From: Malacoraja senta
Lineage: Eukaryota
Length of the DNA: 64,000 nt
Assembly: GCA_038087875.1 (NCBI GenBank)
Contig: CM075992.1
Location: 10,170,001 to 10,234,000, forward strand
Direction of reading: 5' to 3'
Shown: positions 291-45,038 of the stretch, one piece after another
How positions within the stretch are numbered: the first letter of the stretch is position 1
Layout: every line of letters starts with the position of its first letter
Notes under the pieces: generated by a model
What the model was told of the DNA's origin: nothing
Databases searched by the model: none
What the model saw: the letters and a program-made list of their open reading frames with translations, nothing else
Program-made: the position numbers and the translations under genes

Positions 291-468
291 GCGCTCAGTA
301 ATTTCTCGCAGTCGGTGTTGGCCAGCCCGGAGGAATGGGGCCGCCTGGAGAAGAAGCAGCAGCAGGCAGCGCTTGGCCACTTGCTGCAGGCCATGGAGGT
401 TGTCATCGCCGACGCAGCCCTCAACCTACTCCGCAACAACAAGACGCGCTATTCGTCGTCCACCATCG
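291..468 (+). CDS. ADGRE-like exon (GAIN subdomain A) ALSNFSQSV...TRYSSSTI
   Basis: ctctctcaag| acceptor, |gtaagg donor, phase 0->1. Confidence 0.85.
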
Positions 469-3400
469 GTAAGGGACACCCCGCACTCCACATCTCTTTC
501 CCTCCGAACCCCATTCTCCCGCCTTCTCCCCACAGTGGCGCAGCAGTAGAATTGCTGCCTTGCAACGCCGGAGACCTGGGTTCACCTATACAACATCTGT
601 CCATTCTTATCTGTACAACTTCTTTCCATTCTTATCTGTACAACATCTGTCCATTGATTGACCTGTCCACCATCTCTCTGTTGACGCAATGTGTAGAAAA
701 GAACTGCAGATGCTGGTTTAAATTGAAGATAGACACAAAATGCTGGAGTAACTCAGCGGGACAGGCAGCATCAGTCTGAAGAAGGGTCTCGACCCCCAAA
801 CGTCACCCATTCCTTCTCTCCAGAGATGCTACCTGTCCCACTGAGTTACTCCAGCGTTTTGTGTCTATCTTCACCGTTGACTCACCTGTCCACCATCTCA
901 CTGTTGACTCACCTGTCCAACTTCTCACCACATGTAACCTGTCCCCTTTGCCCGCAGCGGTTGATATGGCTTCTCTTCAGAAGGACAAAGTGACGGAGAG
1001 ATCCATCATCTCCCTGACCGCCTACCGCAGCGTCTTGGTGGCTCGCTCCCTCTCGCTGCTGGGACAGGACAATCACGGTACCTGCCCGCTCTCCTTACCC
1101 AGTCCGCGGGGCTAAGGGCAGCCTGCCAGCCTTCCCCTGGGTCGGATAGTTGGGAGTCAGATGAGGGGGGACCTCATTGAAACACACATAATAATGAAAG
1201 GCCTGGATAGAGTGGATGTGGAGAGGATCTTCCCACTAGTGGGAGAGTCTAGGAATAGAGGTCACAGCCTCAGAATTAAAGGACGTACTTTTCGGAAGAT
1301 GAGGAAGAATTTCTTTAGTCAGAGGGTGGTGAATCTGTGGAATTCTTTGCCACAGAAGGCTGTGGTGGCCGTCAGTGGATATTGTTAAGGCACAGATAGA
1401 GATTCTTGATTAGTACGGGTGTCAGAGGTTATGGGGAGAACGGGGTTAGGAGGGAGAGATACATCAGCCATGATTGAATGGCGGAGTAGACTTGATGGGC
1501 TACTCCTATCACTTATGACCTTTTGATCTTCTATCCTGGGACGGCCCTGAGCTGCTCTGCTCCCCGGGAAGTCCCATAATGCCGAGCCAGTGCACGCCAG
1601 AGCAGTGGAGTCCGCCATCACTGTTCACCCATGCCCAGGCCCCTGCTCTGACCACGCTGGACATCCGTGGGCTGTACCAGCTCGATGCTCCGGCTTGTTG
1701 CCGATTCAAAGACGGATGTTCCGGGTGGATACCAGGGACAGCTGTGACAGCCCAGGAAGGGAGGTTATGGAGGGGTTATGGAGGGGTTGAATAGTGGATG
1801 GAGGTTGATGGACCTCACAGCTCTGGAACGATGAGTTCTGGAGGTAAATGCAGGAACTTCATGGGAGTGGGGTGGGATGAGGTTTGATGAGGTGAGATGG
1901 GGTGGGTATGAGTGGGGATCAGGTGGTATGAGGCTCGATGAGGTGGGATGTGGTGGAATGAGGTGGGATTAGGTGGGATGAGTTGGGATGAGGTTGGGAT
2001 GGGGATGAGGTGGAATGATGTGGTAATCGAGTGGGGATGAGGTGGGATGAGGTTGAATGAGGTTTGCTGAGGTGGGAAGAGGTTTGGGGTTGAGCATGAC
2101 GTGGGATGGGAAGAGATGTGGATGGGGTGGGATGAGGTTTGATGGGGTGAGATGAGGTTAGTGAGTGGGGATGAGTAGTTTAGAGGTGGTAGTGCTTTCT
2201 ACTTAGAGCATAATCAGACTGTCCACCTTCCTCTCTCTCACACACGGGGTGGGACAGAGAACGCTCTCCTCATCTTCCTGGCTTACGGAGACCTGGAGAC
2301 CGTCGTGGAACCAACGTTGGCGCAGGAGGGAAGCAGAAACGTCTCCAGTGTGAAGTTCAATTCGAAGGTGGCGACGTTGACCAAAGTGGGCGGCCAGAGG
2401 CAGGGTCTGACATCAACCATCAACATCACCTTCAGTGTGAAGGAGGAGGTGAGCCCGCACTCAGCGGTGGGGCAAGGCAGACGGCAGTCGTGGCGGACCC
2501 TGAGATCCCTGCGCAATAAACCCATTCCACCACCTTCATCTATGCTTCCACCAGTGGGGGAGTCTAGGACCAGAGGCCACAGCTTCTGGCGGGTCGCGGT
2601 GGCGCAGCGGTAGAGTTGCTGCCTTACAGCGAATCAGCGCCGGAGACCCGGGTTCGATCCCCGACTGCTGGTGCCGTCTGTACGGAATTTGCACGTTCTC
2701 CCCAGTGACCAGCGTGGGTTTTCTCTGAGATCTTCTTTTCGGTTCCTCCTACACTCCAAAGACCTTCAGGTTTGTAGGTTAATTGGCTTGGTAAATGTAA
2801 AAATTGTCCCCAGTGTGTGTAGGATAGTATTAATGTGCGGGGATCGCTGGTCGGTGCGGACCCGGTGGGCCGAAGGGCCTGTTTCCACCCTGTATCTCTA
2901 AACTAAAAAAACTAAACTAAAGCTTCAGAGCAAAAGGATGAACCTTTAGAAATTAGAAAGTTAAAGTGAGAAATGTTGCTTTAGGTTTAGAGATTTAAGA
3001 TTGTGGAGCGATTGTAGTATGTGATTGTGGATCTTCTATGGGCCAGCACTCAAATGTGCTTCACACCCACCGTCCACATCTTTAGACACCCTGTGCGCAG
3101 GGGAGAGGTAGGGGGCTGAAGATGTCCTGGTTGGGCTGCTCCTGGGCCTGGCCATGCTGGCCATCCGCGAGTCACGGCGCCAGGTGGAAGAGGGCTCTGC
3201 CCGAGCCGGCTGCCTGCCCCTTTTCTGGGGTTACGTCCGCGCCCGGTTGGTGTTAGAGAGGGACTACGCGCTGTCCACTGGCACCTGGGGATATCCGGGA
3301 CCGCTGGGCACCGCGGGGGGTGGATTGCATCTTTAATAAGGATGGCGATATAGTTACTTGAAAATTCAGTGATTAGATAATTTGGTGCTTTTGTATTATG

Positions 3401-3596
3401 GTGCAGGGTGAATTACCGCTGGTTTGGTTAGTAAAATATTTTTTAATAATAATTGGATACATTATTTTTGATTTAAAAAAATATCGTTGCCTGGGTTGGG
3501 TGCTAGCTTTGGAAGCTTGTGCAATAAATCGATTCCAACACCTTCTGTTTCCACTGGTGGGAGAGTCCAGGACCTCACCGCATGGTAATAGAGTCA

Positions 3597-3627
<31 letters not shown>

Positions 3628-6600
3628 AGTGTGTGTGGGTGTGTGATAGTGTGCGTGAGTGTGAGTGTGGGTGTGTGATAGTGTGCGTGAATGTGAGTGT
3701 GTGTTTGTGAGTGCGTGTGAGTTTGTGTGAGTGCGTGCGAGTTTGTGTGTGAGTGCGTATGAGAGTATGTGTATGCATGTGTGAGAGTGTTTGTGAGTGT
3801 GTGCATGTGTGTGAGTGCGTGCGAGTGTACGTGTGAGAGTGTGTATATGAGTGTATGTGTGTGCATGTGTGTGTGCGTAAGGGAGGTGTAATACTCAGGT
3901 GTGCTTGCTTCCAGATTGACGATGGTGGCAATAGGAAGAGACTCTGTGGCACCTGGATGGGCAACGGCTGGGCAACACAGCAGGAGAGCAGCGGCAACAA
4001 GACTCACGCCACCTGTACCTACAACACCCTGTCCAGCTTTGCCTTGCTGCTGGCTCAGTACAAAATGGTGAGACGGGTGGAGAGCGGGCATGGAGCAGGG
4101 CATCGGGCAGCCGCTTGGGCCACGGTCCGGCAGCGCAGGAACACAGCCAGCAGGAACACGGGCGCAACACAGTGGAGTAGCTGGTAGAGTTGCTGCCTCA
4201 CAGCGCCAAAGACCCAGATTCAATCCTGACCTCCGGTGCTGTCCCTGTGTGGACAGTTTAGTTTAATTTAGTTTAGTACAGTTTAGTTTCTTTTAGTTTG
4301 GATTTGTTTCATTTCTTTTAGTTTAGTTTTAATTTATTTTACATTAGTTTAGTTTATTTTAATTTATTTTATTTTAGTTTAAATCATTTTATTTTAGTTT
4401 TGTTTCGTTTAATTAATTTCAGTTTAGTTGAGTTTAGTTTAATTTTGTTTTGTTTATTGTCACATGCCCCGAATAGCGTTTTTGTTGCGTGCTATCCAGT
4501 CGGTGCAAAGTCCTCACAAAAGTTTGCACGTTCACCCCGTGACCGCGTGGGTTTCCTCCTGGTGCTCCCGTTTCCTCCCACATCCAAAAGACGTGCGGGT
4601 TTGGAGGTTAATTGTAAATTGCCCCCGGTGTGTGAGATGTGAGAGTGGGATAACATAGAACTATTGCACAGGTGAGCGTTGACCCGGTTCGATCGTGACC
4701 TCGGTAAGCTCGCTCTGTGCAGTTTAGTTTAAATAAGTTTCATTTAGATTCGTTTTGTTCCGCTAGGTTCCATTTAATTTAGACCATAGACAAAAAGCCA
4801 TTCGGCCCTTCGAGCCAGCACCGCCACTCAATGAGATCATGGCTGATCATCCACAATCAGTATCCCGTTCCCGCCTTCTCCCCATAACCCCTGACTCTGC
4901 TATCTTTAAGAGCCCTATCTAGCTCTCTCTTGAAAGTATCCAGAGAACCGGCCTCCACCACCCTCTGAGACAGAGAATTCCACACTCACAACTGTGTGGA
5001 AAAGTGTTTCCTCATCTCTGTTCTAAATGGCTTACCCCCTTATTCTTAAACTGTGGCCCCTGGTTCTGGACTCCCCCAACATCGGGAACTTGTTTCCTGC
5101 CTCTAGCGTGTCCAAACCCTTAATAACTTTATAAATAAAACTCGAGTATACAATTTAGTTCAGTTTCATTTTATTTTGTTTCGTTTCATTTTGTTGCTTT
5201 TACAGTCACATGTCCCAAGGTACAGTGAAAAGCTTTTATGTTGCGAGCTATCCAGTCAGTTGACCATAGTCCACCGAGTCCACGCCGACCATTGATCACA
5301 TGTACACTAGTTCCATGTTATACCACTTTCGCAACCTACACTCCAGGGGCACATTGAGGAAGCCATTTAACCAACCAAGCGAGACACAAATTGCTGGAGT
5401 AACTCTGCGGGTCAGGCGGCATCTCTGAAGAAAAGAGCTAGGTGACGTTTCGAGTTGGGACCCTTCTTCAGATGTCCCGACCCAAAATGTCACCCATCCT
5501 TTTTCTCTGAAGATGCTGCCTGACCCGTTGAGTTACTCCACCACGTTGTGCCAATATAAACCAGCATCTGAGGAAGGATTTCGACCCGAAACATCACCAA
5601 TTCCTTTTCTTCAGAGATGCAGCCTGACCCACTGAGTTACTCCAGCATTCTGTGTCAATCTTCAGTGTAAACCAGCATTTGCAGTTCCTTCCTACACATG
5701 TCGTCTGAACTGCTGATACTGGTTTAGAAAATAACCTCGCAAAGTACTGGAAGGTAGACAAAAATGCTGGAGGAACTCAGCGGGTGAGACAGCATCTATG
5801 GAGCGAAGGAAATAGGCGACGTTTCGGGTCGAGACCCTTCTTCAGACTCACAAAGTACTGGGGTAATTTGGTGTGATTTGTGCTGCATTGTAAACTTGGA
5901 CCATTTACATTGCGGTTGCCTGACGTTGATCTGTATTGCCCTCAGGACCCGGTGCACAGTACCGCCCTCTGGTGGATCACTCTACTGGTGCTGCCCGTGT
6001 CTCTCCTCCTCCTCTTGCTGTCCGTAGCAACCTTCTTCTGGTGCAAGGCCATCCGCGGCCCCTACACGCTGATCCGAGCGCACCTCTGCCTCAACCTCTT
6101 CCTGGCCCAGCTGCTCTTCCTCATCAGCATGTCCATGAAACCGAAAACGGTAACGTGTGGGTGTCGGGTGGGTGTGGGGTGCATGTGGTGTGGGTGTGGG
6201 GTGAGGCGGGTGAGAGATGGATGTGGGGTGGATGGGTGAGGGGTGTGTAGTTGTTGGGCAGGGATGGGCAGGGGGCATGGAGTGTGTTGGGTTTGGGGGG
6301 GTGAGAGTGGGTGGGGATGGGTTGGCTGTTTGGGTGGGTGGCCTTGATTGGGTGGGGGTGTGGGATGGGTAGAGTAGATGAGGGGTGGGTGAAGGGTGGG
6401 TATTAGGTGGTCTCCAGTGGGCGTGTAGTGACCACTGCTGTCTCTGCAGATGGTGTGTGCGTTGGTGCTGGGTAGTATTCACTACCTGCTGCTGGTGGCG
6501 TTCATCTGGATGCTGCTGGAGGCCGTACACCTGTGGCTGATGGTGCTCAACCTGAAGGTGGTGAACTTCACCCGCACACGCGTGATGAAGCGGCGATACA

Positions 6601-9600
6601 TGTACCCTGCCGCCTACCTGTGCCCGGCGCTGGTGGTGGCCGTGGCAGCCTCTGTCAACCACGACGGCTACCGGAGACAAGACGGGTCAGTATGACATAC
6701 ACCGTCACACACAGTGACACACACCATCACACACAGTGACACACACCGTCACACACGGTGACACACATAGGGTCACACGTGGTGACACACTCCGCCACAC
6801 AGACTGAAGAAGAGTCTTGACCCGAAACGTCACCTATTCCTTCTATCCACAGATGCTGCCTGTCCGGCTGAGTTACTCCAGCTCTGTGTCTATCCAGTTT
6901 AAAGCAGCATCTGCAGTTCCTTCCTACATATACCTGTTTGTACTGTATGCTGCCTTTACAATCTCTGCTGCCCCAGCCACAGACTAGGCCCAACTCCTCC
7001 ATGCCCACCCAGACGTTCCATTCAAGCTGATGGAGCCTGTGGGAAGTACATCAGTCCACTCACCCTGATTGGTGCTAATATCATCATATGTAGGAAGGAA
7101 ATGCAGATGCTGGTTTAAACCGAAGATTGACAGAAAAATTTGGAGTAACTCAGTGGGGCAGGCAGTATCTCTGGAGAGAAGGAACAGGCAACGTTTCGGG
7201 TCGAGACCCTTGTTCAGCCTCAAATGCCACTTCAGAGACTGCATCTGAAGAAGGATCCCGACTTGAAACATCACCTCTCCATGTTCTCCAGAGATGCTGC
7301 CTGACCCGTTGAGTTATTTTGAGTCTATCTTGATTGCCGTTATCACCCTGGCTGTCAGAAGTTGTGATGCAAGACTTTAACAGAAGCCCCAGAAGATAAA
7401 GAAAATACTTATTACTTTTGAAAATCTCATTGATAGATGAATAAATGTTTCTTTACTTGCAGGTGTTGGCTGACTCTGGAGAAAGGATTTATCTGGAGTT
7501 TGTTAGGTCCGGTGTGCTTCGTGGTCCAGGTAAGGTTTGAAGGGGTGATACAATAGACAATAGAAAATAAGTGCAGTGGTAGGCCATTCAGCCCTTCAAG
7601 CCAGCACCGTCATTCAATGTGATCATGGCGCAGCGGTAGAGTTGCTGCCTCACAGCTCCAGAGACCCAGGTTCGATCCTGACCAGGGGTGCTGTCTGTAC
7701 GGAGTTTGTACATCCACTTCGTGACCTGCGTGGGTTTTCTCCGGGTGCTCCAGTTTCCTCCCACACTCCAAAGACGTACAGGTTTGTAGGTTAATTGGCT
7801 TGGTCTATGTGTAAATTGTCCCCTGTGTGTGTAGGATAGTGTCAGTGTGCAGGGATCGCTGGTCGGTGCGGACCCGGTGGGCCGAAGGGCCTGTTTCTGC
7901 GCTGTATCTCTAAACTAAACTAAACCTCCTGTAAAATCTTCACCAATTCTTTCTACACCATTTAAAGCAGCTCCATCTCCTCCTCACGATAGCTCCTGTC
8001 TTTTGGTCTGCTTTGGACTAAACCAGTACATTTCCTCCCTCTTTGGAAACTTGAATCCTCTTTTAACCCAGTCTGTTATTAGCTACTTGTTGCACAGAGA
8101 TTTTTTATTTTTCATCGTGGTGAAGTTTGCACCAAGTATGTCTATGAGTACCCTGGTGTCATGTTGAATGTTTCATTTGTGGACTGCTCCTCAGTCCATG
8201 TTTTACAGTCATAGAGTGATACAGTGTGGAAACAGGCCCTTCAGCCCAACTTGCCCACACTGACCAACATGTCCCATCTACACTAATCCCACCTGCCTGC
8301 GTGTGGCCCATATCCCTCAAAACCTGTCCTATCCATGTGGCTCCGTGTGTGTGTGTGAATGAGAGTGTGTGTGTGTATGCAAGTGTATGAGTGTGTGCAT
8401 GTGTGTGTGTATGAGTTTGTGTGTGTGAGTATGTGTATGAGTCTGAGTGAGTGTGTGTGAGTGCGGGTGTGTGTGCATGTGTGTGTGTGTATGAGTGTGT
8501 GTGTGCGGGTGTGTAGGAGTCTGAGTGTGTGTGAGTGCGTATGTGTGCGTGTGCATGTGTGTGCGTATGAGTGTGTGTGTGAGAGTGTGTATATGAGTCT
8601 GAGTATGCGTGTGAGTGCGTACGTGTGCATGTATGTGTGCTCGCGTGTGTGTGTATCTGTGTCAATAGACAATAGTCAATAGGTGCAAGAATAGGTCATT
8701 AGGTCCTTCGAGGTACACTGTGATCATGGCTAATCATCCACAATCAGTACCCCATTCCTGCCTTCTCCCCATATCCCCATGACTCCGCTATCTTTAAGAG
8801 CCCTATCTAGCTCTCTCTTGAAAGTATCCAGAGAACCGGCCTCCACCGCCCTCTGAGGCAGAGGTGGTGTCCGTACAGACAGCACCCGAGGCAAATTTGA
8901 GCCCGGGACTCTAGCGCTAAAAGGCAGCATTTCTACCGCTGCTACACCGTGCATAAATACAATCAAGCCAAACTCAAGGACAACAGTACGAGTGAAGAGA
9001 AAACTACCAGAGTGCAGAACATACTTTCTCAGCATTGTAGTGTAGCAGTTCCAGAGTGGGATTGGAAGATCACACAGTACCCTAGGTTATGGAAAGACTG
9101 TTAATTAGTCTGATAGCAGAGGGGAAGAAGCTGTTCCTGAGTCTGGTGGTAGGTGCTTTCATACAACACAGTACAGCACAAGAACAAGCCCTTCGGCCCA
9201 CAATGTCTATGCCAAACATGATGCCAACACCACCTCCTATCCACCTACGCAAGCTCCATATCCCTCCTTTCCCTCAGCATCCATTTGCCTGACCAAAAGC
9301 TTTTGTATCTTTTGTCTGACGGGAGTGTGGAGAATAAGGAAAGTGGAGGGTGGTGAATCTGTGGAATTCATTGCCACGGATGGTGGTGGAGGCCAAGTCA
9401 ATGGATATCTTCAAGGCAGAGATAGATAGATTCTTAATCAGTACGGGTGTCAGAGGTTATGAGAAGGCAGGAGAATGGGGTTAGGAAGGAGAGATAGATC
9501 AGCCATGTGTAGGAATGAACTGCAGATGCTGGCTTAAGCCGAAGGTAGACACAAAAAGCTGGAGTAACAGGCAGCATCTCAGGCAGCATCTCTGGAGAGA

Positions 9601-12600
9601 AGGAATGAGTGACATTTCGGGTCGAGACTGGTGGAGTGAGTCTGAAGAAGGGTCTCGACCGAAACATCGCCCATTACTTCTCGCCAGAGATGCTGCCAGG
9701 CCCGCTGAGTTAACCCCTGTCCGACTTAGGAAACCTGAACGGAAACCTCTGGAGACCTTGCGCTCCACCCAAGGTTTCCATGAGTCGCCAGAGGTTTTGA
9801 TCACTTGCCAGGAAAGCTTCGACCGAAGCGTGAGCTGCATCTACTGACCAAAGATCCCACAGGATCTTTGCTAGCGACCGCCCACACACACAAACACATC
9901 GCGAAGGTGGGGGCCAGGGACAGCGGAGGAGCGCTGTCTGCGTGATGAAGAGGAAGGTAAACGGCTGCCACAGAGCACGGTAAGGCATGGGGGGGGGGGG
10001 GGGAGAGCGCGGGGGGGAGGGAGAGAAGATGAAAGAAGGGGGGCGAAGGACAGAGAAGGGGAGAGAGAAGGGGAGGAGAAGTGGAGAGAAGGGGGGGAGA
10101 AGGGGAGAGAGAAGGAGAGAGAAGGGGGGGAGAAGGAGTGGAGACAGTTTTAAGAAGTTTAATAAAGTTAGCGGGCATTTTACCTTCCGGCGGTTCTTCT
10201 AGGTCCTGAAAACCATAGGATCTTTGCTGAAAACTCCAATGAACCAATCAAAATGGCTGGTCAGCGAAGGAGATTACCTTCGACTGCCTGTAAGTAAATA
10301 ACAACCCCACTCCACTGGCTTCGACCAAACGGCAACTATTTTTCGTCGAGGCCTCTTTTGAATTTGTTGAAATACTCGCAGGAACATAGAAGAGCCTCGA
10401 CTATGCGGAAACCACTTTCGACTATTAGGGAGAGTGACCAGAACCTCCGGGAACCTCATGGAAAGCTTGGGTGGGGCGCAATGTCTCCAGAGGTTTCCGT
10501 TCAGGTTTCCTAAGTGGGACAGGGGCTTTACTCCAGCATTTTGTGTCCATCTTCGATAGATCAGCCACGAATGAATGGCGGAGTAGACTTGATGGGCCGA
10601 ATGGCCTAATTCTGCTCCTATCAGATGAGCATGAAAGTTTATGAAGGAACGACTAGGGTGGGAAAGGTGTTTGGAAAAGTATTGGAGTTATCTGTATAAT
10701 TAAACGTATCATCTTGACCACTTCCTGTTTGCATTGCATATTGATTTTAGAAAAAACGCTACCACTTATGGCTGTAATTTTTGGCCATCTTACTCAGAGT
10801 CTCCCTCTGCTGCGGAGGCCAAGAGGATTTTTCCCATCGATCAAAAATAAAAGACCTATTAATGTTTTATTCTCTCTCCTGTCAATCATGCCATGAAGGC
10901 CACGCCCCTTCCGGTGGGAAGGACAATACAACCCGGAAGTGTGGGCGTGGCTCAGTCTCTGCAACATGGGGGAGTGAGAGGTCACGACTCTCTGTCTGAG
11001 CTGTGAATCAAGTGAACACACTATGGAAGTCAGGGGTAGACACTACTTTTCTATACAATCTGAAGTTAGGAAAATATGTTTCTGTACATCTCTGTCCCGT
11101 GGGGACTCAGTTAAACTGTGTAGATTGAGGTTGGGACACTGTGGGTTAAATTACTATTTGTGCATTGTAGGGAAACATGTTTCTGGCTTGTGTGAATGTG
11201 GGAGTAATGAGACAGTTAAGCATGTTTTCCTAGAATGTAAAAAGTATAGGGTAGAAAGAAAAGTATTATTTGTTAGACTGACAGGACTTGGAGTTGAGGC
11301 TTTTTCTGTTTTATCTTTGTTTGGACACAATGAGAAACATCAACTGATATCCAGGGCTGTTCTTCAATTCCTGCAAGTTACAGGACTGTATGTAAGAATT
11401 TAGTTCAAACTTTGACCTGTGGAGGGCAGTAATACGCTTAGCAGCGTCTGCCGGAATCCTACAAGAAGAAGAAGAAGAAGTGAACACACTGAATGTTAAC
11501 TGAACTGTGTGTGGTTTTTATGTGTTTTTATATGGTTTTGTGGTATTTTATGTTGGTTTTATGGTTGTTTCACCCTGCTTGAAATGGTATAAGTGCATTT
11601 TAATTTGGTGACCTTGCAGCCTACTTGAAATGGTATGAGATTGCATTTGAATTTGGTGGGCTTGCATCCCGCTTGAAATGCTATGAGACTGCATTTGAAT
11701 CTGGTGGCCTTGCACCCGGCTTGAAATGGTATGAGATTGCATTTCAATTTGGTGGCCTTGCACCCTGCTTGAAATGGTATGAGACTGCTTTTCAATTTGG
11801 GGGCCCAGTTGCAGCCTGCTTGAAATGGTATGAGACTGCATTTGAAATTGGTGGCCTTGCACCCTGCTTGAAATGGTATGAGACTGCATTCGAATATAGT
11901 GGCCATGCACCCTGCTTGAAATGGTATGAGACTGCATCGAATTTGTTGGGCGAGCACCCTGCTTGAAATGGTATGAGACTGCATTCAAATTTGGTGGGCG
12001 TGCACCCTGCTTGAAATGATATGAGACTGCATTTGAATTTGGTGACCGTGCACCCTGCTTGAAATGGTATGAGACTGCATTTGAATTTGGTGGCCTTGCA
12101 CTCTGCTTGAAATGGTATGAGACTGCATTTGAATCCGGTGGCCGTGCACCCTGCTTGAAATGGTATGAGACTGCATTTGAATTTGGTTGCCTTGCACGCT
12201 GCTTGAAATGGTATGAGACCCCATTTGAATTTGGTGGCCTTGCACCCTGCTTGAAATGTTATGAGACTGCATTTGAATTTGGTGGCCTGTCACCCTGCTT
12301 GAAATGGTATGAGACTGCATTTGAATTTAGTGGCCTGGCACCCTGCTTGAAATGGTATTTCAAGGAATAGCCATGAGTCAACTGCCAGCCAACCAGCCGT
12401 GAGTGAGTACGCTGCCAGCACACCATGCTCAGTGACTGAGCTCCCACTAGCCCTCTGGAAACCAGTCCATTCAGCCCACAACACCCATACTAGCGCTCCA
12501 GGACCCCCACTCCCACTGGCCACCAATATTGGAATTGGTGGAGAGGTGGAATATTGCGTTGGGGGACCAGCCCTACCGTGTGAGTCTAGTTGGAACTATA

Positions 12601-15600
12601 ATTACGGTGCTGCTGTGTTGCAGGTTAACACGGTTTTGTTTGTCATGATCATCTGGATCTTGAGGAGTAGCATGACTGCCCTGAACGCCGATGTTTCAAC
12701 CATCAAGGATTCCAGGTACGTATGAAACCTCACAAGAAACAGGGGGAGACAGAGATCAACTATCATAGGGTTGCTGGGTCCACTCAGCTGCAGTGAGGAT
12801 ATTGATCGCTAGCCAACAATAACTGAGGAGATACTCAGCGGGTCAGGCATCATCTCAGGAGAGAAGGAATAGGTGACATTTCAAGTCGAGACCCTTCTTC
12901 AGACCCAGATTCAGGGGAAAGAGAAACGAGAGATATAGACGGTGATGTAGAGAGATATAAAACATATATATGGAACGTATATAGATCGCTTCACCCAACA
13001 CCTCCGCACAGTTCGCAATAACCAACCTGATCTCCCGGTGGCTGAGCACTTCAACTCCCCCTCCCATTCCGAATCCGACCTTTCTGTCCAGGGCCTCCTC
13101 CATGGCCAGAGTGAGTCCCACCGCAAATTGGAGGAGCAGCACCTCATATTTTGCTTGGGTAGTTTACACCCCAACGGTATGAAAATTGACTTCTCCAATT
13201 TCAGGTAGTCCTTGCTTTCTCCCTCCTTCCCCTCCCCTTCCCAGCTCTCCCACAGCCTAATATCTCCGCCTCTTCCTTTCTTTTTCCTGCCCCCCCCCCA
13301 CATCAGTCTGAAGAAGGGTCTCCACTTGAAACGTCGCTTGTTCCTTCGCTCCATACATGCTGCCTCACCCGCTGTGTTTCTCCAGCATTTTTGTCTACCT
13401 TCGATTTTTCCGACATCTGCAGTTCTTTCTTAAAAATAAATAGAACAAATGAATGATATGCAAAAATGTAATGATGATAAAGGAAACAGGCTATTGTTTC
13501 CTTCTCTCCAGTGATGCTGCCTGATCCATTGAGTGACTCCAGCTTTTTGTGTCTATCTTTGGTTTAAACCAGCATCTGCAGTTCCTTCCCTCATGTTCCC
13601 AGTTGTTTAGTTTATTGTCACGTGTACCGAGGTAAAGTAAAAAGCTTTTGTTGCATGCTATCCAGTCAGCGGCAAGACAATACGTGATTACAATCGAGCC
13701 ATTTACAGTGTACAGATACATGATAAGGGAATAACGTTTAGTGCAAGGTAAAGCCAGCAAAGTCCGATCAAGGATAGTACGAGAGTCACCAGTGAGATAG
13801 ATAGTAGTTGGACACAAAATGCTGGAGTAAATCAACGGGATCGGCAGCATCTCTGGGGAGAAGGAACGGGTGATGTTTCGGGTCGAGACCCTTCTTCATA
13901 CTTTGTGTATGTTACCACTTCTTCAGACTGAGTCGGGGAGAGGGAGACGAGAGAGACGGGAAGGAATGTAGGGGGACGGGGGGGAAATTGGGCCTGTTTG
14001 ACTGCTGGGTTGAGGTCCTCACCCTGTCTTTGTACATCACCAGGATACGGACCTTCAAGGCCATGGCCCAATTCGTTGTGTTGGGCTGCTCATGGGTCTT
14101 TGGACTTTTCCAGCTGAACAAGGACACCATCGTGTTGTCGTACATATTCACCATTGTAAACGGCTCCCAGGGAATGTTCATCTTCCTGGTCCACTGCCTG
14201 CTGAACCAGCAGGTAATCTGCTCTCACCCTCACGCTATTCTGCTCTGACTGCAACATTCACAGTATTCGGTACATTGTTCAGTACATTCTACAGCTTTAG
14301 TTTAGTTGGCTTTAGAGATACCGCGCAAAGGCAGGCCCTTCGGCCCACCCAGTCCACGCTGACCAATGATCAACACCTGCACACTATCGTAGCATTACAT
14401 GGATAGGACACAGAGAGTTGTGAGTCTGTGGAATTCTCTGCCTCAGAGGGTGGTGGAGGGCGGTTCTCTGGATGCTTTCAAGAGAGAGCTTTATAGGGCT
14501 CTTAAAGATAGGGGATATAGGGAGAAGGCAGGAACGGGGTACTGATTGTGGATGATCAGCCATGATCACATTGAATTGTGGTGCTGGCTCAAAGGGCAGA
14601 ATGGCCTACTCCTGCACCTATTGTCTATTGTCTATTGACAGAGATATGGACCAAATGCGGGCAGGTGGGACGAATGTAGCTGGGACATGTTGGCCGGTGT
14701 GGGCAAGTTGGGCCGAAGGGCCTATTTCAGCACTGTGTCACTCTATGACTCTGTGATTCTATCCTAAACATTAGGGACAATTACATTTTTTTACCATAGC
14801 CAATTAATCTACAAACCTGTGTGTCTTTGGAGTGCGGGAGGAAACAGGAGCACCCGGAGAAAACCCACATGGTCACGGGGAGAACGTACAAACTCCGTAC
14901 AGACAGCACCTGTAGTCAGGATCGAACCCGGGTCTCTGGCGCTGTAAGGCAGCAAATCGACCGCTGCGCCACCATGCCATCCTTCACCGACAACAGAATT
15001 CATCAGTTCATGAGAACAGAATTAGACCATTCGGCCCATCAAGTCCAATCTACCATTCAATCATGGCTGATCTGTCTTTCCTCTTGACCCCATAGTCTTG
15101 CCCTCTCACCATATCATTTGACGCCCGTACTAATCAAGAATCTGTCATTCTCTGTTTCAAAAATAACCAATGTCTTGGCCTCCACAGCTGTCTGTGTCAA
15201 TGAATTCCACAGATTCACCACCCTCTGGTTAAAGAAATTCCTCCTCATCTCCTTCCTAAAAGAACGTCCATTTTATTCTGAATCAATAGTTTGGAAGTAT
15301 ACAGTGGCAATGTAGGTAGGATGACACAATGACTCAGCAGGCAAGCAGCATCTCTGGAGAACGTGGATGGGTGACCTTTATGGCCCTGTCCCTCGGTACG
15401 AGTTCATTCCAAGAGCTCTCCCGAGTTTAAACAAATCAAACTCGTGGTAAGCACAGAAAATGAACGAAGCGGGTACGTCGGAGCTCGGGGACGTCTCTTA
15501 ACGGCTCCTAATGCTAACGGCAGGTACTCGTGAAGACTCGCTAATGGCAGGTAAGCTCGGGAAGACTCGTGAAGATGTTTCAACATGTTGAAAAATGTTC

Positions 15601-18108
15601 ACGAGAGCCCCGAGTACTGACGAGCGGCCATTACCGTAAATCTCCGAGTTCGAATCAGGGAAAACTCGGGAGAGCTCTTGGAATGAACTCGTACCTTGGG
15701 ACAGGGCCATTAGGGTCAGGACCATTCTACAAACTGATTGTAGTGGGGGACGGGGGAGAAAACTGGAAGAGGTGGGAGGCTGGACATGTACAATACATGT
15801 ACCACATGTTAGGCAGCACAGTCCCGCAACAGTAGAGGCACTGCCTCACAGCACAAGAGACCCGGGTTCGATCCTGACCTCGGGTGCTGTCTGTGTAGAG
15901 TTTGCAAATTCTCCCTGTGGTTTTCCTCTGGGTGCTCTGGTTTCCTCCCACATTTCAAAGAAGTGTGGGTTTGTAGGTTAATTGGCCCTCTGTAAATTGC
16001 CCCCTAGTGTGCAGGGAGAGGATGTGAAATTGGGATAACATAGAAGTGCTGTGAACTGGTGATCGATGGTCGGCATGGACTCATTGGGCCGAAGGGCCTG
16101 TTTCCCCGCTGTATCTCCAAACTAAACATAGAACTAGCATGATAGACACAAAGTGCTGGAGTAACTCAACGGGTCAGGCAGCATCTCTGGAGAAAAAGGA
16201 TGGATGATGTTTCAGGACCCTTGAAACGTCACCCATCCTTATTCTCTACGGATGCTGCCTGACACACTGAGTTTCTCCAGCACTTTGTGTCTATCTTTGG
16301 TGCATACCAGGTATGTGCGGGTGTCAGAGGTTATGGGGAGAAGGCAGGATAATGGGGTTGAGAGGGAAAGGTAGATCAGTCATGATTGAATGGCGGAGTA
16401 GACTTAATGGGCCGAATGGCCTAATTCTGCTCTTAGCACCTATGAACATGAACTTATTAACATATACCGGCATCTGCAGTTCCTTTCTATACATAGAACT
16501 AGTGCGGACAGGTGATCGCTGGTCGGCATGGACTCAGTGGGCCGAAGGGCCTGGTTCCACGCTGTATCTCAAAACTTTACTTTGCTCTAACATTATTCCT
16601 TTATCATGTATCTATACACTGTAAATGGATCGATTGTAACCATGTATTGTCTTTCCGCTGACTGGATAGCACGCAACAAAAGCTTTCCACTGTACCTCTG
16701 TACACGTGACAATAAACTAAACTGAACTGAACTAAAACATTAAGTGGGCAGCACGGTGGCGCAGCGGTAGAGTTGCTGCGCCACCAGAGTTCGGAGACCA
16801 GAGTTCGATCCCAACTATGTGTGCTGTCTGTACGTTCTCCCCGTGACCTGCGAGGGTTTTCTCCGAGATCTTCAGTTTCCTCCCACATTCCAAAGACGTG
16901 CAGGTTTGTAGGTTAATTGGCTTGGTGTATGTGTAAATTGTTTCTAGTATGTGTAGGATGGTGTTAGTGTGCGGGGATCGCTGGTCGACGCGGACGGGGT
17001 GGGCCGAGGGGCCTGTTTTCTTGCTGTACCTCTAAACTAAAAATCTAAAGAACATTAATAATCTACGGTTCGCTTTCATGTCATCAGTGTACGGTCTCGA
17101 GGCGATGTTTTTGTGCTGATTTGTTTATTTACGCTGCCTTCTGTGGGCAGGTGAGGAGAGAATACTGCAACTGGTTCAACCGCATGTGCCGGAGGAAGAA
17201 GGCAGAGGCGGCAGACACCTCCTCCCCCATCGCCATCTCCCAGGTGACGGTGAGTGCCGAGGACCAAACACGCATGGTGCATCGCCGCAGTGAACCCCAG
17301 CCAGCTGCTGTGGCATGTGCTGCACTGGTGCCCCCTCTCCAATGCTTCAACACACCCCTCCATTCCTTCCACCCCTTCCTGCACCATGGCGCAGCGGTAG
17401 AGTTGTTGCCTCACAGCGCCAAAGACCCGGGTTCCATCCTGACAACGGGTGCTGTCTGTACGGAGTTTGCATGTTCTCCCTGTGAACACGTGGGTTTTCT
17501 CTGGGTGCTCCGGTTTCCTCCCACATCCTAAAGACGTGCAGGTTCGTAGGTTAATTGTCTTTGGTAAAAGATTGTAAATTGACCCTAGTGTGTGGATAGT
17601 GTTAGTGTACGGGGATCGCTGGTCGGCGTGGACTCGGTCGGCCGAAGGGCCTGTTTCCGCGCTGTATCTCTAAATTAAGCATCCTCGTAAATCTTCTCTG
17701 TGCTCAGATTATTATGATGTTTGGACATGGCAGGTAAAGTTTGTTATTTGATTTTATTCGAAGGTAGACACAAAATGCTGGAGTAACTCAGCGGGACAGG
17801 CAGCATCTCTGGAGAGAAGGAATGGGCGACCTCTTGGGTTGAGCCCCTTTTTCAGACAGATGTCAGGGGTGGGGACAGGACAAAGATAGAATGTAGGCAG
17901 AGACAGTAAGCCAGGTGGAGAACTGTGAAGTGGAAGGGGATGGAGAGAGAAAGGAAGGGCTAATTGAAGTTAGGGAAGTCAATGTTTAAACCAGCATTTG
18001 CAGTTCTTTCTTAAACATATTTGGTTTTATTCTCAGGTTTCGAAGACTGTGGATAGTCAGACAACTCAGTCGGACATTCCGTGGGTGAATATGGGCTCCG
18101 AAGGATGA
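291..18108 (+). CDS. Adhesion GPCR of the ADGRE (CD97/EMR)-like family, 5'-partial, 11 exons in window (GAIN-GPS-7TM-C tail)
   Basis: Exons 291-468, 958-1077, 2258-2448, 3915-4067, 5946-6149, 6450-6685, 7463-7529, 12624-12715, 14044-14212, 17151-17249, 18037-18108 have AG acceptors and (except the terminal exon) GT donors with compatible phases, giving a 1581-nt open frame. Motifs: LSSFALLLA (GPS/Stachel), WMLLEAVHL, CWL..GFIWS.LGP, LGCSWVFG, N..QGMFIF. The 67/92/169-nt 7TM exons are typical of ADGRE/ADGRL genes. Exact ortholog not resolved. Confidence 0.93.
697..875. mobile_element. Penelope-terminus-derived inverted-repeat element
   Basis: gatagacacaaaatgctggagtaactcagcgggacaggcagcatc and its reverse complement flank ctgaagaagggtctcgacc; same family recurs throughout the window. 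Confidence 0.7.
958..1077 (+). CDS. ADGRE-like exon (GAIN) AVDMASLQ...LLGQDNH
   Basis: cccgcag| acceptor, |gtacct donor, 120 nt, phase 1->1. Confidence 0.8.
1160..1525 (+). mobile_element. CR1/HER1-like LINE 3' fragment
   Basis: RGDLIET...RGHSLRI...FFSQRVVNLWNSLP (CR1 RT C-terminus) plus 3' UTR. Confidence 0.9.
1860..2175. repeat. Degenerate (GGGAT/GAGGT)n simple repeat
   Basis: Repeating gaggtgggat units. Confidence 0.85.
2258..2448 (+). CDS. ADGRE-like exon (GAIN subdomain B) ENALLIFLAYGDL...FNSKVATL...INITFSVKEE
   Basis: acag| acceptor, |gtgagc donor, phase 1->0; NS.V and NITF motifs of GAIN. Confidence 0.85.
2590..2922 (+). mobile_element. tRNA-derived V-SINE (HE1-like)
   Basis: A box tggcgcagcggt, B box ggttcgatcc, V-domain core, CR1-like tail ending (ctaaa)n. 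Confidence 0.88.
3030..3480 (+). mobile_element. Tx1/L1-clade LINE 3' fragment
   Basis: GLLLGLAMLAIRESRRQ...CLPLFWGYVRARLVLE resembles the Tx1 ORF2 C-terminus; A-rich tail near 3475. Confidence 0.65.
3595..3878. repeat. (GT)n-rich degenerate microsatellite
   Basis: Direct inspection. Confidence 0.95.
3915..4067 (+). CDS. ADGRE-like GPS/Stachel exon
   Basis: ttccag| and |gtgaga; CGTW...W...NKTHATCTYNTLSSFALLLAQY aligns with the GPS consensus. Confidence 0.92.
4785..5135 (-). mobile_element. CR1 LINE 3' fragment
   Basis: Reverse complement of the CR1 3' end seen at 58560-58935. Confidence 0.85.
5815..5848 (-). ncRNA. Minimal type I hammerhead ribozyme motif in Penelope-derived repeat
   Basis: Minus strand AGU CUGAAGA A GGGUC UC GACCC GAAA C GUC GCC: core, stem II, GAAA, GUC site. 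Confidence 0.7.
5946..6149 (+). CDS. ADGRE-like exon TM1-TM2
   Basis: ctcag| and |gtaacg; two hydrophobic helices, HLCLNLFLAQLLF. Confidence 0.93.
6450..6685 (+). CDS. ADGRE-like exon TM3-TM4
   Basis: ctgcag| and |gtcagt; C..HY..L.AF.WMLLEAVHL, Y..PALVV. Confidence 0.95.
7463..7529 (+). CDS. ADGRE-like 67-nt exon ECL2-TM5 (CWLTLEKGFIWSLLGPVCFVVQ)
   Basis: ttgcag| and |gtaagg; CWL..FIWS..GP motif. Confidence 0.95.
7626..7925 (+). mobile_element. V-SINE (HE1-like)
   Basis: Same structure as 2590-2922. Confidence 0.88.
8345..8662. repeat. (GT)n-rich degenerate microsatellite
   Basis: Direct inspection. Confidence 0.95.
9713..10527. mobile_element. PIF/Harbinger-like non-autonomous DNA transposon
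   Basis: Long TIRs (cccctgtccgacttaggaaacctgaacggaaacctctggaga / reverse complement at 10485-10527), TTA duplicated at 9710-9712 and 10528-10530. Confidence 0.85.
11023..11477 (+). mobile_element. 5'-truncated I/Nimb-clade LINE
   Basis: RLRLGH..L...CECG..ETVKHVFLEC zinc knuckle; (AAG)n tail; 13-bp TSD aagtgaacacact at 11010-11022 and 11478-11490. Confidence 0.85.
11571..12360. repeat. 48-bp minisatellite, about 16 copies
   Basis: Unit caccctgcttgaaatggtatgagactgcatttgaatttggtggccttg, head-to-tail. Confidence 0.95.
12624..12715 (+). CDS. ADGRE-like 92-nt exon TM5-ICL3
   Basis: ttgcag| and |gtacgt; VNTVLF...LNADVSTIKDSR. Confidence 0.93.
12985..13432 (+). mobile_element. Penelope-like element 3' fragment (GIY-YIG C-terminus plus terminal repeat)
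   Basis: Near-identical to 47150-47585. Confidence 0.85.
14044..14212 (+). CDS. ADGRE-like 169-nt exon TM6-TM7
   Basis: caccag| and |gtaatc; TFKAMAQFVVLGCSWVFG...QGMFIFLVHCLLNQQ. Confidence 0.95.
15381..15709. mobile_element. PIF/Harbinger-like MITE
   Basis: TIRs tggccctgtccc..gtacgagttcattccaagagctctcccgagttt; TTA at 15378-15380 and 15710-15712. Confidence 0.88.
16745..17045 (+). mobile_element. V-SINE (HE1-like)
   Basis: A/B boxes, V core, tail. Further copies at about 14760-14975(-), 15810-16130, 17385-17680, 31633-31780, 48770-49020. Confidence 0.85.
17151..17249 (+). CDS. ADGRE-like helix-8 exon (VRREYCNWF...)
   Basis: gggcag| and |gtgagt; VR.EY..W motif. Confidence 0.88.
18037..18108 (+). 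CDS. Probable terminal coding exon VSKTVDSQTTQSDIPWVNMGSEG*
   Basis: Pyrimidine tract plus tctcag acceptor, phase 0, TGA at 18106-18108, AATAAA at 18220-18225. Confidence 0.65.
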   Translation, partial: VSKTVDSQTTQSDIPWVNMGSEG

Positions 18109-18419: not shown

Positions 18420-19583
18420 TAGGCTGTGGGCCGAGGAGCTTTTTCGTTCAGGTTCGTGACCCAACTCACGGAACGACCTAAATTTTTCACATATTGTGTA
18501 AAAATATTATATACATCATACCTGAAACTCGTCAAGAACAAAACCTGCACATTTTGTTTAAATATGATGAAAACCAATTTTACGAGTAGTAATTGTCCAA
18601 TCAATGCACGTTTGACATTGAGGTCGGACGCAAATTGACCAATCCCGCGCTTTGTTTTATGGTCGCAAGGGAGCAAGGACCCTGGGATCAAGGCTGCCTC
18701 CTCATTACATCAATAGCAATAACATGGTTTCCAAGTATAAAGGTAATGCTCACCTTGCTGATCATTTTGTTTTTCAATTGATTTATCTTTATAAAGTAAC
18801 GATGTGAACTGTTAAATAAAATGATAAATAACAAATGTACAGCTGGGTTAGGATTAGGGTTAGGGTCGGGATCGGGGTTAGGGTTAGGGTCAGAGTAAGG
18901 GTCAGGGTTAGGATCAGGGTTAGTGTCAGGGTCAGGGTCGGCCGGACTGTGGGAAGGCTGGTGAGTGCTGCGAGGGGTCGGTCGGGCTGTCGGCCGGCCG
19001 GTGTTGCAGCGAGCGAGTGGGCAGACTGACGGAGTCGGCGCTATGCGGGTGCTGAAGGCGGCCTGGGCTGCGTGAAAGACAATGCTGCTCGCCACCATAA
19101 TCACCACGACGATCCAGAAGGGCATGCTGGCCGAGGTGGACTCGCTGAGCGGCCACACGTACGGAGCCCGCAGCCAGTCCCAAAGCGGCTCCAGCTCCAG
19201 CCGTGGGCAGCTCTGGAAGGGGGGGGGGGTGTTACGGTTAGTATAAGGTTAGGCATTTTCCTCTCAGTGGAAGGTGCCTTAGCCTTCCTCCATCCTGGCA
19301 CTGCCCCAGTCCCACTATATAATATATAGTTTAAATAGACTGCAACACGGAAATAGGCACCCCATGGTGTAATATGGGCATTGGACACGAGATGGCGCTT
19401 ACTTTTTTAATTTCATTTTCTAATTAGTTTAATTAATTAATGTGCAACTTTTGGCACTGACGAGTTATGACTTCCTTCTCAATTATATTTTATCTAAATC
19501 TGTGCAAAATTGTATGTAGTTCCAAGACATGGGTCACGAAAGTTGATTGCTAGACACATTTTTGATGCTTGGCCCACAGCCTA
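18420..19583. mobile_element. Non-autonomous TIR DNA transposon with captured GC-rich insert
   Basis: Termini taggctgtgggcc / ggcccacagccta; imperfect TIR of about 140 bp (shared blocks ttcgtgaccca, aactcgtca, tgcacatt); a second left end at 46887. Confidence 0.8.
18845..18940 (+). repeat. Degenerate TTAGGG/TCAGGG hexamer array
   Basis: gggttagggttagggtc... variants, interstitial. Confidence 0.85.
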
Positions 19584-27800: not shown

Positions 27801-28806
27801 TGGCGACTTCCACAGGGTAATCTCTAAATATACTGATCTTGTCTCCTTCCAATATGAGGTTTCTGCTTTGAACAATTATCTTCATCATATTATCCAAAAC
27901 ATGGTCATATTGCACCTTCACTATCAGTTGTCTTGGGGGGGCGCCCTCCCTTGGGCGACGTCTCGATACTCTGTGCGCTCGGGCATGTAGTGGTGATTGA
28001 TCCAAATTCAAGACTTTTTTCAGTAGATCTGCAGCAAATTCACGGGGGTCACGATTCCCCTCTCTGACTTCCTTGATGCCCACGATTCTTAAATTCTGGC
28101 GTCTCTGTCGTCCCTCCAAATCAATACATTTTTCGGTTATTTGATGTAATAACTTTGATAGCCGTTTATTCTCAGCAATAAGTTTATTTGTAGTTTCGGT
28201 GCTCGTCTCAGCAATTTCCTCTAATTCCGTCACAACCTGTTGGTGTTGATTTAATGTCTGGAGGATAGGCTCCAACTTAGAATCAAATTTAGATTCCATC
28301 GAATTCAGTTTATCATTTACTTCTTCAATATTTTGTTTCAAATTTTCTTCCATGAGTAACTTCCAATCTTCCAGAACTTCATGTATAGAAGCTGTAACTT
28401 CTTCTTTAATTTGTTCTTTAATTTCCTCTTTAAAAGAAATCAGATCCTTTTTAAGATTTTTAATTTCTTTCATTATATTAGAGATTTCCTGTGTAATGAA
28501 GATTTTTAATTCTTCCACATCTGTCTTTTTCTTCTTTGAGATATCTTCTTGGGATGCTGTTAAAACTGAGGCCGAGGCTTCAGTTGGGCCTACCTCATTT
28601 CCCTTGCCGGTTTTTCTCGCCTTGGGGGGGGGTATGTTGAATCAACATGCTGCCGGTGTCGCGCGCCTGATGACGTCACGAACTTACTGCAAACAATCGG
28701 TGCCGTTTACTGCAGGTAGGTCCCGTCTTTTTCCCCCGTTTTCAGCGTTTTTTTCACGGAGCTAGTCGGCGCGAGTCTCTCCTACTCCATAGCGCCACCG
28801 GAAGTG
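21835..28806 (-). mobile_element. Full-length L1 retrotransposon (degraded ORF1 and ORF2)
   Basis: ORF1 (DLEGRQRRQNLRIVGI, ~28635-26700); endonuclease (LNVYGP, IGGDLN, YSRIDYF, SDH); RT (LDAEKAFD, GCRQGC, LFADDV); poly-A at ~21835-21850; 9-bp TSD atgaacttc at 21826-21834 and 28807-28815. Confidence 0.95.
26871..27739 (+). mobile_element. GC-rich non-autonomous retroelement with Rex1-like 3' tail, inserted in L1 ORF1
   Basis: Interrupts ORF1 (NNLR|YGLLFP) with tatc on both sides; homologous to 37113-37948 and 53244-54025. Confidence 0.75.
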
Positions 28807-44270: not shown

Positions 44271-44525
44271 ACGCACCCCACTCCCCCACATCCCCCCTCC
44301 CCCCTTCAAGCACTAGTAATGTTCATGCGTCAGTAATGTCCTGTTTGCCCGCAGTTGACCCTCTGTGTTCCCCTCCTACAGGGTTTAGGAGCTGTTGCTG
44401 TGGACGGAGAGATGGGGACGTGAGCGGCCATTGAGGGCAGGCAGGGTGCCGGTGAGCCTCCCACCCCCCCTCCCCCCCCCCCATCTGCTCGGTGTGTGGG
44501 CTGAGCTTTGAGGGGCTGAGCTTCG

Positions 44526-45038
44526 ATGGAGGACATGATGGGGCACAACAAGGAGAAGCGTTATGAGTGCGATGTGTGTGGCAAGGCCCGGCAGCACTGG
44601 TACCTGCTGGAGACCCACCGGAGGGTGCACACGGGAGAACGTCCCTTCGACTGCTCGGAGTGCAGCAAGAACTTAACCCGATACGAGACCGCGTGCACTC
44701 CGGCGAGATGCCCTTCGGCTGCTCCAACTGCATCAAGCGGTTCATCCGCTCCAACAGCCTGCTGGAGCACTGGCAAACCCACAGCGGCGAGCACCGCCTC
44801 ACCTATGCCCAGTGCGGCAAGGGCTTCACCTGCTCCTCCAAGCTGCTGTCCCACCAGCAGGTGCACACTGGTGACCGCCCCTTCTCCAGGCCCTTCGGCG
44901 GCTCCGACTGCGGCAATACTTCAAGACAGTGTATGACCTGAAGATCCACCGGTGAGTGCACACGGGCGAGAAGCCCTTTTGCTGCTCCACCTGCGACAAG
45001 AAATGTTCAATTCGTCGAAGCTGCGGATGAACTGGCGG
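44526..45038 (+). pseudogene. C2H2 zinc-finger pseudogene
   Basis: YECDVCGK...H.RVHTGERPF and further fingers across frameshifts; truncated by the LTR at 45039. Confidence 0.88.

Follow-up and report, generated by a model that had tools for sequence, protein, structure and literature searches.

A remodelled, very probably non-cleaving GPS in a skate ADGRE-type adhesion receptor

The ADGRE (EGF-TM7) adhesion G protein-coupled receptors (GPCRs), comprising ADGRE1 (EMR1), ADGRE2, ADGRE3, ADGRE4 and ADGRE5 (CD97), combine a GAIN domain with a secretin-family seven-transmembrane (7TM) region. A gene with the same two modules is described here from a 64,000-nucleotide stretch of contig CM075992.1 of the skate Malacoraja senta (hereafter the window; all coordinates are window positions), with a main focus on its strongly altered GPCR proteolysis site (GPS). 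In CL1, the GPS disulfides C832-C801 and C834-C820 keep the turn around the scissile bond in place, and the mutation H836S blocks cleavage but not transport to the surface (PMC3321182). The Phe at position S10.49 stacks on the catalytic His, the peptide of a Gly-Cys pair hydrogen-bonds this His, and the Gly is strictly conserved in cleaving human receptors (PMC13062082). The bond of the Cys at S12.50 is reported for all human adhesion-GPCR GAIN domains, and for 'most' of them in the discussion of the same paper (PMC13062082). The VWWL motif has been described as the non-catalytic core of the GPS (PMC11697300).

The GPS region of the skate gene, at 3945-4058 on the plus strand, translates to CGTWMGNGWATQQESSGNKTHATCTYNTLSSFALLLAQ, exactly as given in the original prediction for this locus (Table 1). 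The prediction that C1 and C3 are kept, C2 and C4 are missing, the catalytic His is replaced by Thr and the Stachel is intact was also correct, and two further losses were found, namely the Gly before C2 and the S10.49 Phe. C2 is not substituted but deleted together with this Gly, which leaves a two-residue gap against four of four shark rows; the gap is common to all skate rows when compared with sharks and the sawfish Pristis, and none of the four sequencing runs compared has an insertion there. The H-X-S/T triad is absent, with Thr-Leu-Ser in its place. Other aids to self-cleavage are absent as well: the S10.49 aromatic residue is Thr, the Gly-Cys at S12.50 is deleted and one disulfide pair is left of two. 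The assumed pairing of C1 with C3 and C2 with C4 agrees with the CL1 bonds C832-C801 and C834-C820 (PMC3321182). C1, C3, both Trp, the Leu at GPS-1 and the Stachel are kept, so the non-catalytic core of the GPS is retained. Judged from published mutagenesis (H836S and the roles of Phe and Gly-Cys), it is very likely that the skate receptor does not cleave itself, as had been predicted.

The same site is present in other skates. An exon search found two proteins among four candidates, from Amblyraja radiata and Leucoraja erinacea, with GPS exon identities of 96% and 94% to the respective models. The site is identical in Amblyraja XP_032906739.1 and in Leucoraja XP_055519965.1 and XP_055520966.1, and the window protein is distinct from both skate models (83% and 81% identity overall). 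In addition, four of nine listed sequencing runs, with three organism labels, were compared over 3880-4165; their organisms are possibly the same species as the skate models and are not added to the species count. The site is covered in all four runs, and Gly-Cys, C4 and His are restored in none. The contigs of runs X1 and X7, which share one organism label and come from two studies, end at exon borders and join exons 3, 4 and 5. The overhanging ends of these contigs, compared by eye, correspond to the final 25 bases of exon 3 and the initial 27 of exon 5 (26/27 and 27/27), and runs X2 and X3 continue through the introns. The GPS exon is thus part of a spliced mRNA in a skate relative, and for this relative the expression check proposed with the original prediction gave a positive result in two runs. 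None of the listed runs is recorded as RNA. Run X1 is flagged 'probably DNA', and the joined exons may come from a retrocopy, against which stand two genomic-type runs that show no joined form. Compared with runs X2 and X3, the window exon carries five substitutions in its first 11 bases (3915-3925) and has three bases (one Lys) fewer at its end (4066).

The closest non-skate protein among the matches listed is XP_051897944.1 of Pristis pectinata (55.8% identity over 529 columns), followed by sharks with 44-47%; identity outside the elasmobranch group is at most 42% among these matches. In a careful tree of 22 rows, the skates form a clade (100/100), the skates and Pristis form another (100/100), and both lie inside a 13-row clade (100/100) of receptors with variable-type immunoglobulin (IgV) domains. 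A quick tree of 52 rows, with a midpoint root and no ADGRL outgroup, has the same shape and places the skate gene among chondrichthyan ADGRE-like and CD97 rows. The best matches are ADGRE proteins and the 7TM region groups with ADGRE sequences, which bears out the assignment to an ADGRE-type receptor. An alignment of orthologues, also proposed with the original prediction, has a divided outcome: the other skate models share the loss, and most shark orthologues retain C2, C4 and His.

Multiple orthologues allow the losses to be ordered. The canonical site, with four cysteines and His-Leu-Ser, is found in Heterodontus, Cetorhinus, Carcharodon, two Scyliorhinus, Mustelus, Pristiophorus and Heptranchias. 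Pristis keeps the four cysteines but has Ser for His and Asn for Phe, together with a short loop as in skates. Because Pristis lacks His and Phe yet has four cysteines, it has been shown at the sequence level, with one non-skate batoid sampled, that catalysis (His, Phe) was lost first and the C2-C4 disulfide later. The sawfish intermediate excludes remodelling in one step, and the single coordinated event assumed in the original prediction has to be abandoned. In the carpet sharks Rhincodon, Chiloscyllium and Hemiscyllium, Val replaces His and the S10.49 Phe is also gone. The two bamboo sharks have Ser in place of the Gly before C2, and their IgV domain is missing the first Cys and the FG-loop Asp. 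A joint clade of carpet sharks and batoids was not rejected by the gene-tree test (p-AU 0.147). On the species tree, the His loss of carpet sharks would be a second one, and because of this tree and the different replacement residues (Val versus Ser or Thr) the two losses are regarded as independent. In Heterodontus, an annotated isoform (X4) skips the whole GPS/Stachel exon in frame.

The rarity of the pattern was assessed with a profile search of 380 proteins, 358 of which contained GPS stretches (368 in all); the census comprises 366 rows, after removal of one partial row and of a duplicate of the window exon. These rows are not a random sample, as they include redundant entries and many turtle and teleost sequences. 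All four cysteines are present in 348 rows, C2 and C4 are missing in eight, C4 only is missing in eight and two rows show other patterns. C2 is never missing alone (C4 is absent in 8/8 rows without C2), so paired loss occurs more often than by chance. The eight rows with paired loss are from skates (four), gars (three) and a frog (one), and His is absent in 33 of the 366 rows. His, Phe, Gly-Cys and C4 are absent together only in the four skate rows. Each single loss has a precedent, and as far as these rows go the skates alone combine all of them. Loss of cleavage by itself is ordinary. The skate variant was not found in the mainly non-subscription literature searched. An ADGRE3-named protein of Pogona shows an unpaired pattern, with C1 and C2 kept and C3, C4, His and the nucleophile gone.

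Conservation among skates was also assessed. Of 392 sites scored in three long skate proteins, 80 are variable, and these avoid the sites that 110 background ADGRE-like proteins conserve (9 of 108, against 22 expected; 0/20,000 permutations were as low, P<5e-5). The remodelled segment is variable at 1 of 38 sites, compared with 44/256 in the 7TM region (P=0.015) and 86/369 elsewhere (P=0.0014). Indels between skates are in frame, and the GC content is 0.79 at third codon positions (GC3) versus 0.49 in introns. From such comparisons it has been shown that the remodelled state is maintained in skates, and the gene can be described as fast-evolving but constrained. ADGRE genes in general are numerically unstable, weakly constrained and fast-evolving (PMC8584163). 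Of the selected remodelling in the original prediction, these data support the remodelled state, which is common to all skate sequences seen and has been conserved since, and not selection for the change itself.

By orthology, the skate gene belongs with an ADGRE-type receptor of elasmobranchs. It probably encodes a maintained, expressed single-chain receptor in which the GPS has become a structural element. In a first step, on the batoid stem, the His and the Phe that orients it would have been lost. In a second step, on the skate stem, the Gly-C2 dipeptide and C4, a clamp on the strained turn, would have become dispensable once catalysis was gone; they may have been removed as a pair because a lone cysteine is disfavoured. 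C1-C3, the Trp pair, the GPS-1 Leu and the Stachel strand would be retained as the folding core of the beta-sandwich. The receptor would stay one chain and signal without shedding its ectodomain, with ligand or force on the N-terminal domain shifting the GAIN domain, and the attached Stachel or a GAIN-7TM contact activating the 7TM region. Uncleaved receptors that signal via the Stachel, and a route without dissociation, have been described, with conflicting reports (PMC13197933). Surface expression and signalling of the skate receptor are likely. Signalling through the Stachel is put at even chances, since folding alone would also preserve this strand.

An AlphaFold2 model of the 5'-truncated Leucoraja protein has strands at 95-100, 103-109 and 116-121 around C1 and C3, and its best fold match is CD97. 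A single-sequence AlphaFold2 model of Pristis reached a predicted local distance difference test score (pLDDT) of 39 and was set aside. The Leucoraja structure prediction did not separate the single-chain reading from its rivals.

Several observations limit the original prediction or weigh against the single-chain reading. The paired loss, taken in the original prediction as a mark of non-cleavage, is neither unique nor proof of it: the gar and frog rows show the same loss and keep His, and polycystin-1 is cleaved with one bond. Two of four cysteines would be a bonded pair by chance in one case out of three, so paired loss alone is weak evidence. H-X-S/T is absent in 10 of 32 human adhesion GPCRs, which also lessens the surprise (PMC13062082). 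Relaxed constraint would explain the loss of C2-C4, once catalysis had disappeared, just as well. The skate stem is about twice as long as the Pristis branch (0.55 versus 0.25) and changed 10 of 96 conserved sites. Over all sequences seen, four of the 38 core sites vary, not one, and the locus may be duplicated, with paralogues among the skate proteins. The 17 read variants give a ratio of nonsynonymous to synonymous polymorphism (pN/pS) of 0.67 over the exon (P=0.31) and of 0.30 over the core (P=0.086), neither of which is significant. Run X2 has more differences in the exon than in the intron (9/153 versus 1/127, P=0.025), and in run X3 the corresponding counts are 11/153 and 4/133 (P=0.18); five of the exon differences are confined to its first 11 bases. 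The two RefSeq skate models begin within exon 3 and have neither exons 1 and 2 nor a signal peptide, and the spliced mRNA does not come from the window's own organism. In the Leucoraja model the Stachel has a pLDDT below 50, a result that is uninformative for the Stachel as the model lacks half of the GAIN domain.

Relaxed constraint is the first alternative to the single-chain reading and is considered unlikely. It holds that a redundant, duplicated immune-receptor gene is drifting to loss, that decay of the GPS is tolerated and that the protein folds or signals poorly. The long skate stem, the changes at conserved 7TM positions, the non-significant ratio of nonsynonymous to synonymous substitution (dN/dS) and the known instability and weak constraint of ADGRE genes (PMC8584163) would all fit, as would the gene fragments and extra copies in skates, including a piece fused to Amblyraja XP_032906737.1. 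Against drift, the frame is open over 11 exons and the skate indels are in frame, the skate changes avoid conserved sites and leave the core more conserved than the 7TM region, GC3 is well above intron GC, and spliced contigs occur in two studies. Amblyraja XP_032906737.1 itself is an ADGRE model with a canonical GPS that ends in part of the 7TM region from another copy of the remodelled gene, and it probably reflects a tandem cluster with extra copies.

Just as unlikely is a loosened GAIN domain, in which loss of C2-C4 frees the uncleaved Stachel easily, so that basal activity is high or little force is needed for activation. Both disulfides hold the turn (PMC3321182), but polycystin-1 folds with one bond (PMC4810088). 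A shorter transcript without subdomain A would perhaps suit this explanation, given where both RefSeq skate models begin; against it, exons 1 and 2 are open and Pristis-like in the window, and the X7 contig has 619 bases 5' of the GPS exon, which by length alone leaves room for exons 1 to 3. The Stachel is not placed as a strand in the AlphaFold2 model, although that model misses half of the domain. The Heterodontus isoform without the GPS exon is a further point for a loosened domain.

Continued cleavage, by slow His-independent chemistry at Leu/Ser or by a separate protease that cuts close to the GPS, is improbable. The Ser nucleophile and the Leu are kept, and ADGRB1 and ADGRB3 lack His, yet fragments of the size of the C-terminal fragment have been seen in brain (PMC13062082). 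In the skate, four catalytic aids are gone together. A basic Arg-Lys-Arg lies just before C1 (3933-3941), but a furin site requires Arg at P4, which is missing here, and the cluster is altered in run X3; as a furin site it is therefore weak. Finally, an assembly or sequencing error in this genome, a risk acknowledged in the original prediction, is ruled out for practical purposes: compensating errors in short C runs could mimic the His-to-Thr codon change, but the residues are identical in the models of two other species and in 4/4 runs under three organism labels.

The N-terminal part of the elasmobranch group is of interest in its own right. In 12 of 12 species (the eight with a canonical site, the three carpet sharks and Pristis; all predicted proteins), it begins with one to three V-set immunoglobulin (Ig) domains and is without epidermal growth factor (EGF) repeats. 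The models of Heptranchias and Rhincodon end before the 7TM region and were excluded from the trees. The Cetorhinus IgV domain matches the structures of TIM-1, TIM-2, TIM-3 and TIM-4 with E 3e-29 to 4e-24 (15 rows), the next family following at 3e-8, and the Pristis IgV domain also matches TIM-1. The WFND motif of the FG loop is the phosphatidylserine and metal site of TIM proteins (PMC9611583). Among 16 aligned IgV domains, the six TIM cysteines are present in 14, Asn-Asp of the FG loop in 11 and Phe-Asn-Asp in six; the full WFND motif is found in 0/16, as is its Trp, and the two bamboo-shark domains are degenerate. A mis-join behind this layout is unlikely because the same layout occurs in 12 annotations. 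These IgV domains are those of the orthologues; none was found in the 64-kb skate window, the 5' part of the skate gene lies upstream and the skate models are 5'-incomplete. An architecture of TIM-type IgV, GAIN and 7TM was not found in the mainly non-subscription literature searched (including PMC8584163, PMC13197933, PMC11788884 with supplements and PMC8455134). It is a tentative possibility that sharks and rays have an undescribed chimera of a phosphatidylserine-binding TIM-type IgV domain and an ADGRE GAIN-7TM part, that it would be a GPCR sensor of dying cells independent of BAI1, that self-cleavage was dropped at least two times (carpet sharks and batoids), and that the skate GPS was rebuilt as a one-disulfide structural unit that still signals.

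Ig domains were also observed on other ADGRE-like models. Loxodonta africana XP_023396291.1, named 'ADGRE4-like', has a TIM-like IgV domain before a GAIN-7TM part that groups with mammalian E3/E4 rows, and this single record is either a convergent fusion or a mis-joined model. ADGRE-like models of Protopterus and Coilia have an N-terminal Ig domain, of CD300/pIgR type by eye. Recruitment of Ig domains onto ADGRE modules may be recurrent.

The gene as seen in the window has 11 exons (291-18108), all with GT-AG introns, and the joined frame has 526 codons with a single stop at its end (Table 1). The open 11-exon gene of the original prediction is confirmed as to these exons, but the receptor gene has more than 11 in total and its 5' end, with the N-terminus, lies before window base 1. 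The secretin-family 7TM region is supported by Pfam 7tm_2 on exon 5 and on the skate models (E to 7e-45) and by fold matches; the TM3 and ECL2 cysteines and the TM6 and TM7 motifs are all intact. Exons 1 to 4 align along the shark and sawfish GAIN domain before the first transmembrane helix, and Pfam scores the shark GAIN domain. The skate exons alone gave no Pfam GAIN match, and the Pfam GPS score of the skate exon is below threshold (21.2 bits, E 4e-4, versus a cut-off of 22.5; 53-55 bits in shark orthologues). Exon 2 aligns with the shark GAIN domain and is the weakest-supported exon, with no tblastn match.

Table 1. Exons of the receptor gene and residues of the remodelled GPS (TM, transmembrane helix; ECL, extracellular loop; ICL, intracellular loop)
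Feature	Position	Strand	Remarks
Exon 1 in window	291..468	+	GAIN subdomain A helices; open, AG/GT; 26/59 identical to Pristis, tblastn E 9e-13
Exon 2	958..1077	+	First strands of GAIN subdomain B; open, phase 1-1
Exon 3	2258..2448	+	GAIN subdomain B; last 25 bases joined to GPS exon in X1 and X7 contigs
Exon 4 (GPS/Stachel exon)	3915..4067	+	51 codons, phase 0-0, AG/GT
C1	3945..3947	+	Kept, partner of C3; same in 4/4 runs
Thr for S10.49 Phe (orients catalytic His)	3951..3953	+	Asn in Pristis; position set by alignment
Two conserved Trp (3954, 3969) with shortened loop between	3954..3971	+	Loop length same in Pristis
Two-codon in-frame deletion of Gly-C2	3978..3983	+	Exact register ambiguous
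C3	4014..4016	+	Kept; invariant in 64/64 rows
Tyr for C4	4020..4022	+	Same in 4/4 runs
Thr for catalytic His (GPS-2)	4026..4028	+	Ser in Pristis
Leu/Ser scissile position (4029/4032) and intact Stachel SSFALLLAQ	4029..4058	+	No amino-acid change in 4/4 runs
Exon 5	5946..6149	+	TM1-TM2; Pfam 7tm_2 E 2.9e-7; joined to exon 4 in X1 and X7
Exon 6	6450..6685	+	TM3-TM4; TM3 cysteine kept
Exon 7	7463..7529	+	ECL2 Cys-Trp-Leu and TM5 start
Exon 8	12624..12715	+	TM5-ICL3
Exon 9	14044..14212	+	TM6-TM7
Exon 10	17151..17249	+	Helix 8 and tail
Exon 11	18037..18108	+	Tail end and stop; tail 37/56 identical to Pristis

No second copy of the gene and no IgV exon was found elsewhere in the 64-kb window. A 48-bp minisatellite is present in intron 7 (11571-12358; 16.4 copies, 88% matches). 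A GC-rich, coding-like stretch lies about 900 bases past the stop (19030-19215), with frames open on both strands and no Pfam family. An AT-rich element resembling a long interspersed nuclear element (LINE) occupies about 7 kb of the minus strand (about 21850-28800, judged by eye), and C2H2 zinc-finger fragments at 44523-44914 on the plus strand are split over two frames and apparently frameshifted. The remainder of the window holds more LINE remnants, together with remnants like short interspersed nuclear elements (SINE) and long terminal repeat (LTR) elements.

The need of self-cleavage for adhesion GPCR signalling is disputed (PMC13197933), and most tests have used engineered point mutants. 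The elasmobranch orthologues offer a natural series on one receptor, with the machinery intact in most sharks, partly removed in sawfish and carpet sharks and fully removed in skates, in which the roles of the C2-C4 bond and of Gly-Cys in folding, force threshold and Stachel release can be tested. The value lies in this graded series and in the TIM-type IgV ectodomain of the group, rather than in non-cleavage. If it is true that this domain binds phosphatidylserine, two families of receptors for the clearance of dead cells would be joined in the oldest jawed-vertebrate immune system.

Among known systems, the best solved relatives of the skate receptor are ADGRE1 (E 1.7e-71) and CD97, but no one-to-one orthology with any mammalian ADGRE member was found in the 52-row tree. 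ADGRE1 is reportedly uncleaved. ADGRE1-named rows also lack His, but they keep four cysteines and have an altered Stachel start, whereas the skate has an unaltered Stachel and no C2-C4 pair. ADGRE members have EGF repeats, in contrast to the TIM-type IgV of the elasmobranch orthologues. By its numbering, the C3015-C3043 bond of polycystin-1 is the equivalent of C1-C3. It is the single GPS disulfide of that GAIN domain, like the one pair of the skate, and polycystin-1 is cleaved nonetheless (PMC4810088); it also differs in that the His-Leu-Ser/Thr site is kept as His-Leu-Thr and in not being a 7TM receptor. The cleavage-resistant ADGRB2, ADGRB3 and ADGRG5 also have an uncleaved GAIN domain with the Stachel retained and with His and/or the S10.49 Phe lost, but they keep the disulfide of C S12.50, whereas the skate deletes Gly-Cys outright (PMC13062082). 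Like the skate, Atractosteus MBN3317297.1 and MBN3314863.1, Lepisosteus XP_069052023.1 and Hyperolius XP_068130595.1 have only C1 and C3. These gar and frog losses lie on separate branches (three of the four proteins are in the tree), His and Gly are kept and C2 is substituted rather than deleted, which makes these proteins good tests of cleavage with one disulfide. TIM/HAVCR proteins are single-pass mucins with a phosphatidylserine-binding IgV domain, and the IgV of the elasmobranch group is similar but is placed on a GAIN-7TM part. ADGRB1 (BAI1), itself an adhesion GPCR, binds phosphatidylserine (PMC13197933) and is thus a functional analogue, although it uses thrombospondin repeats and not IgV for this purpose.

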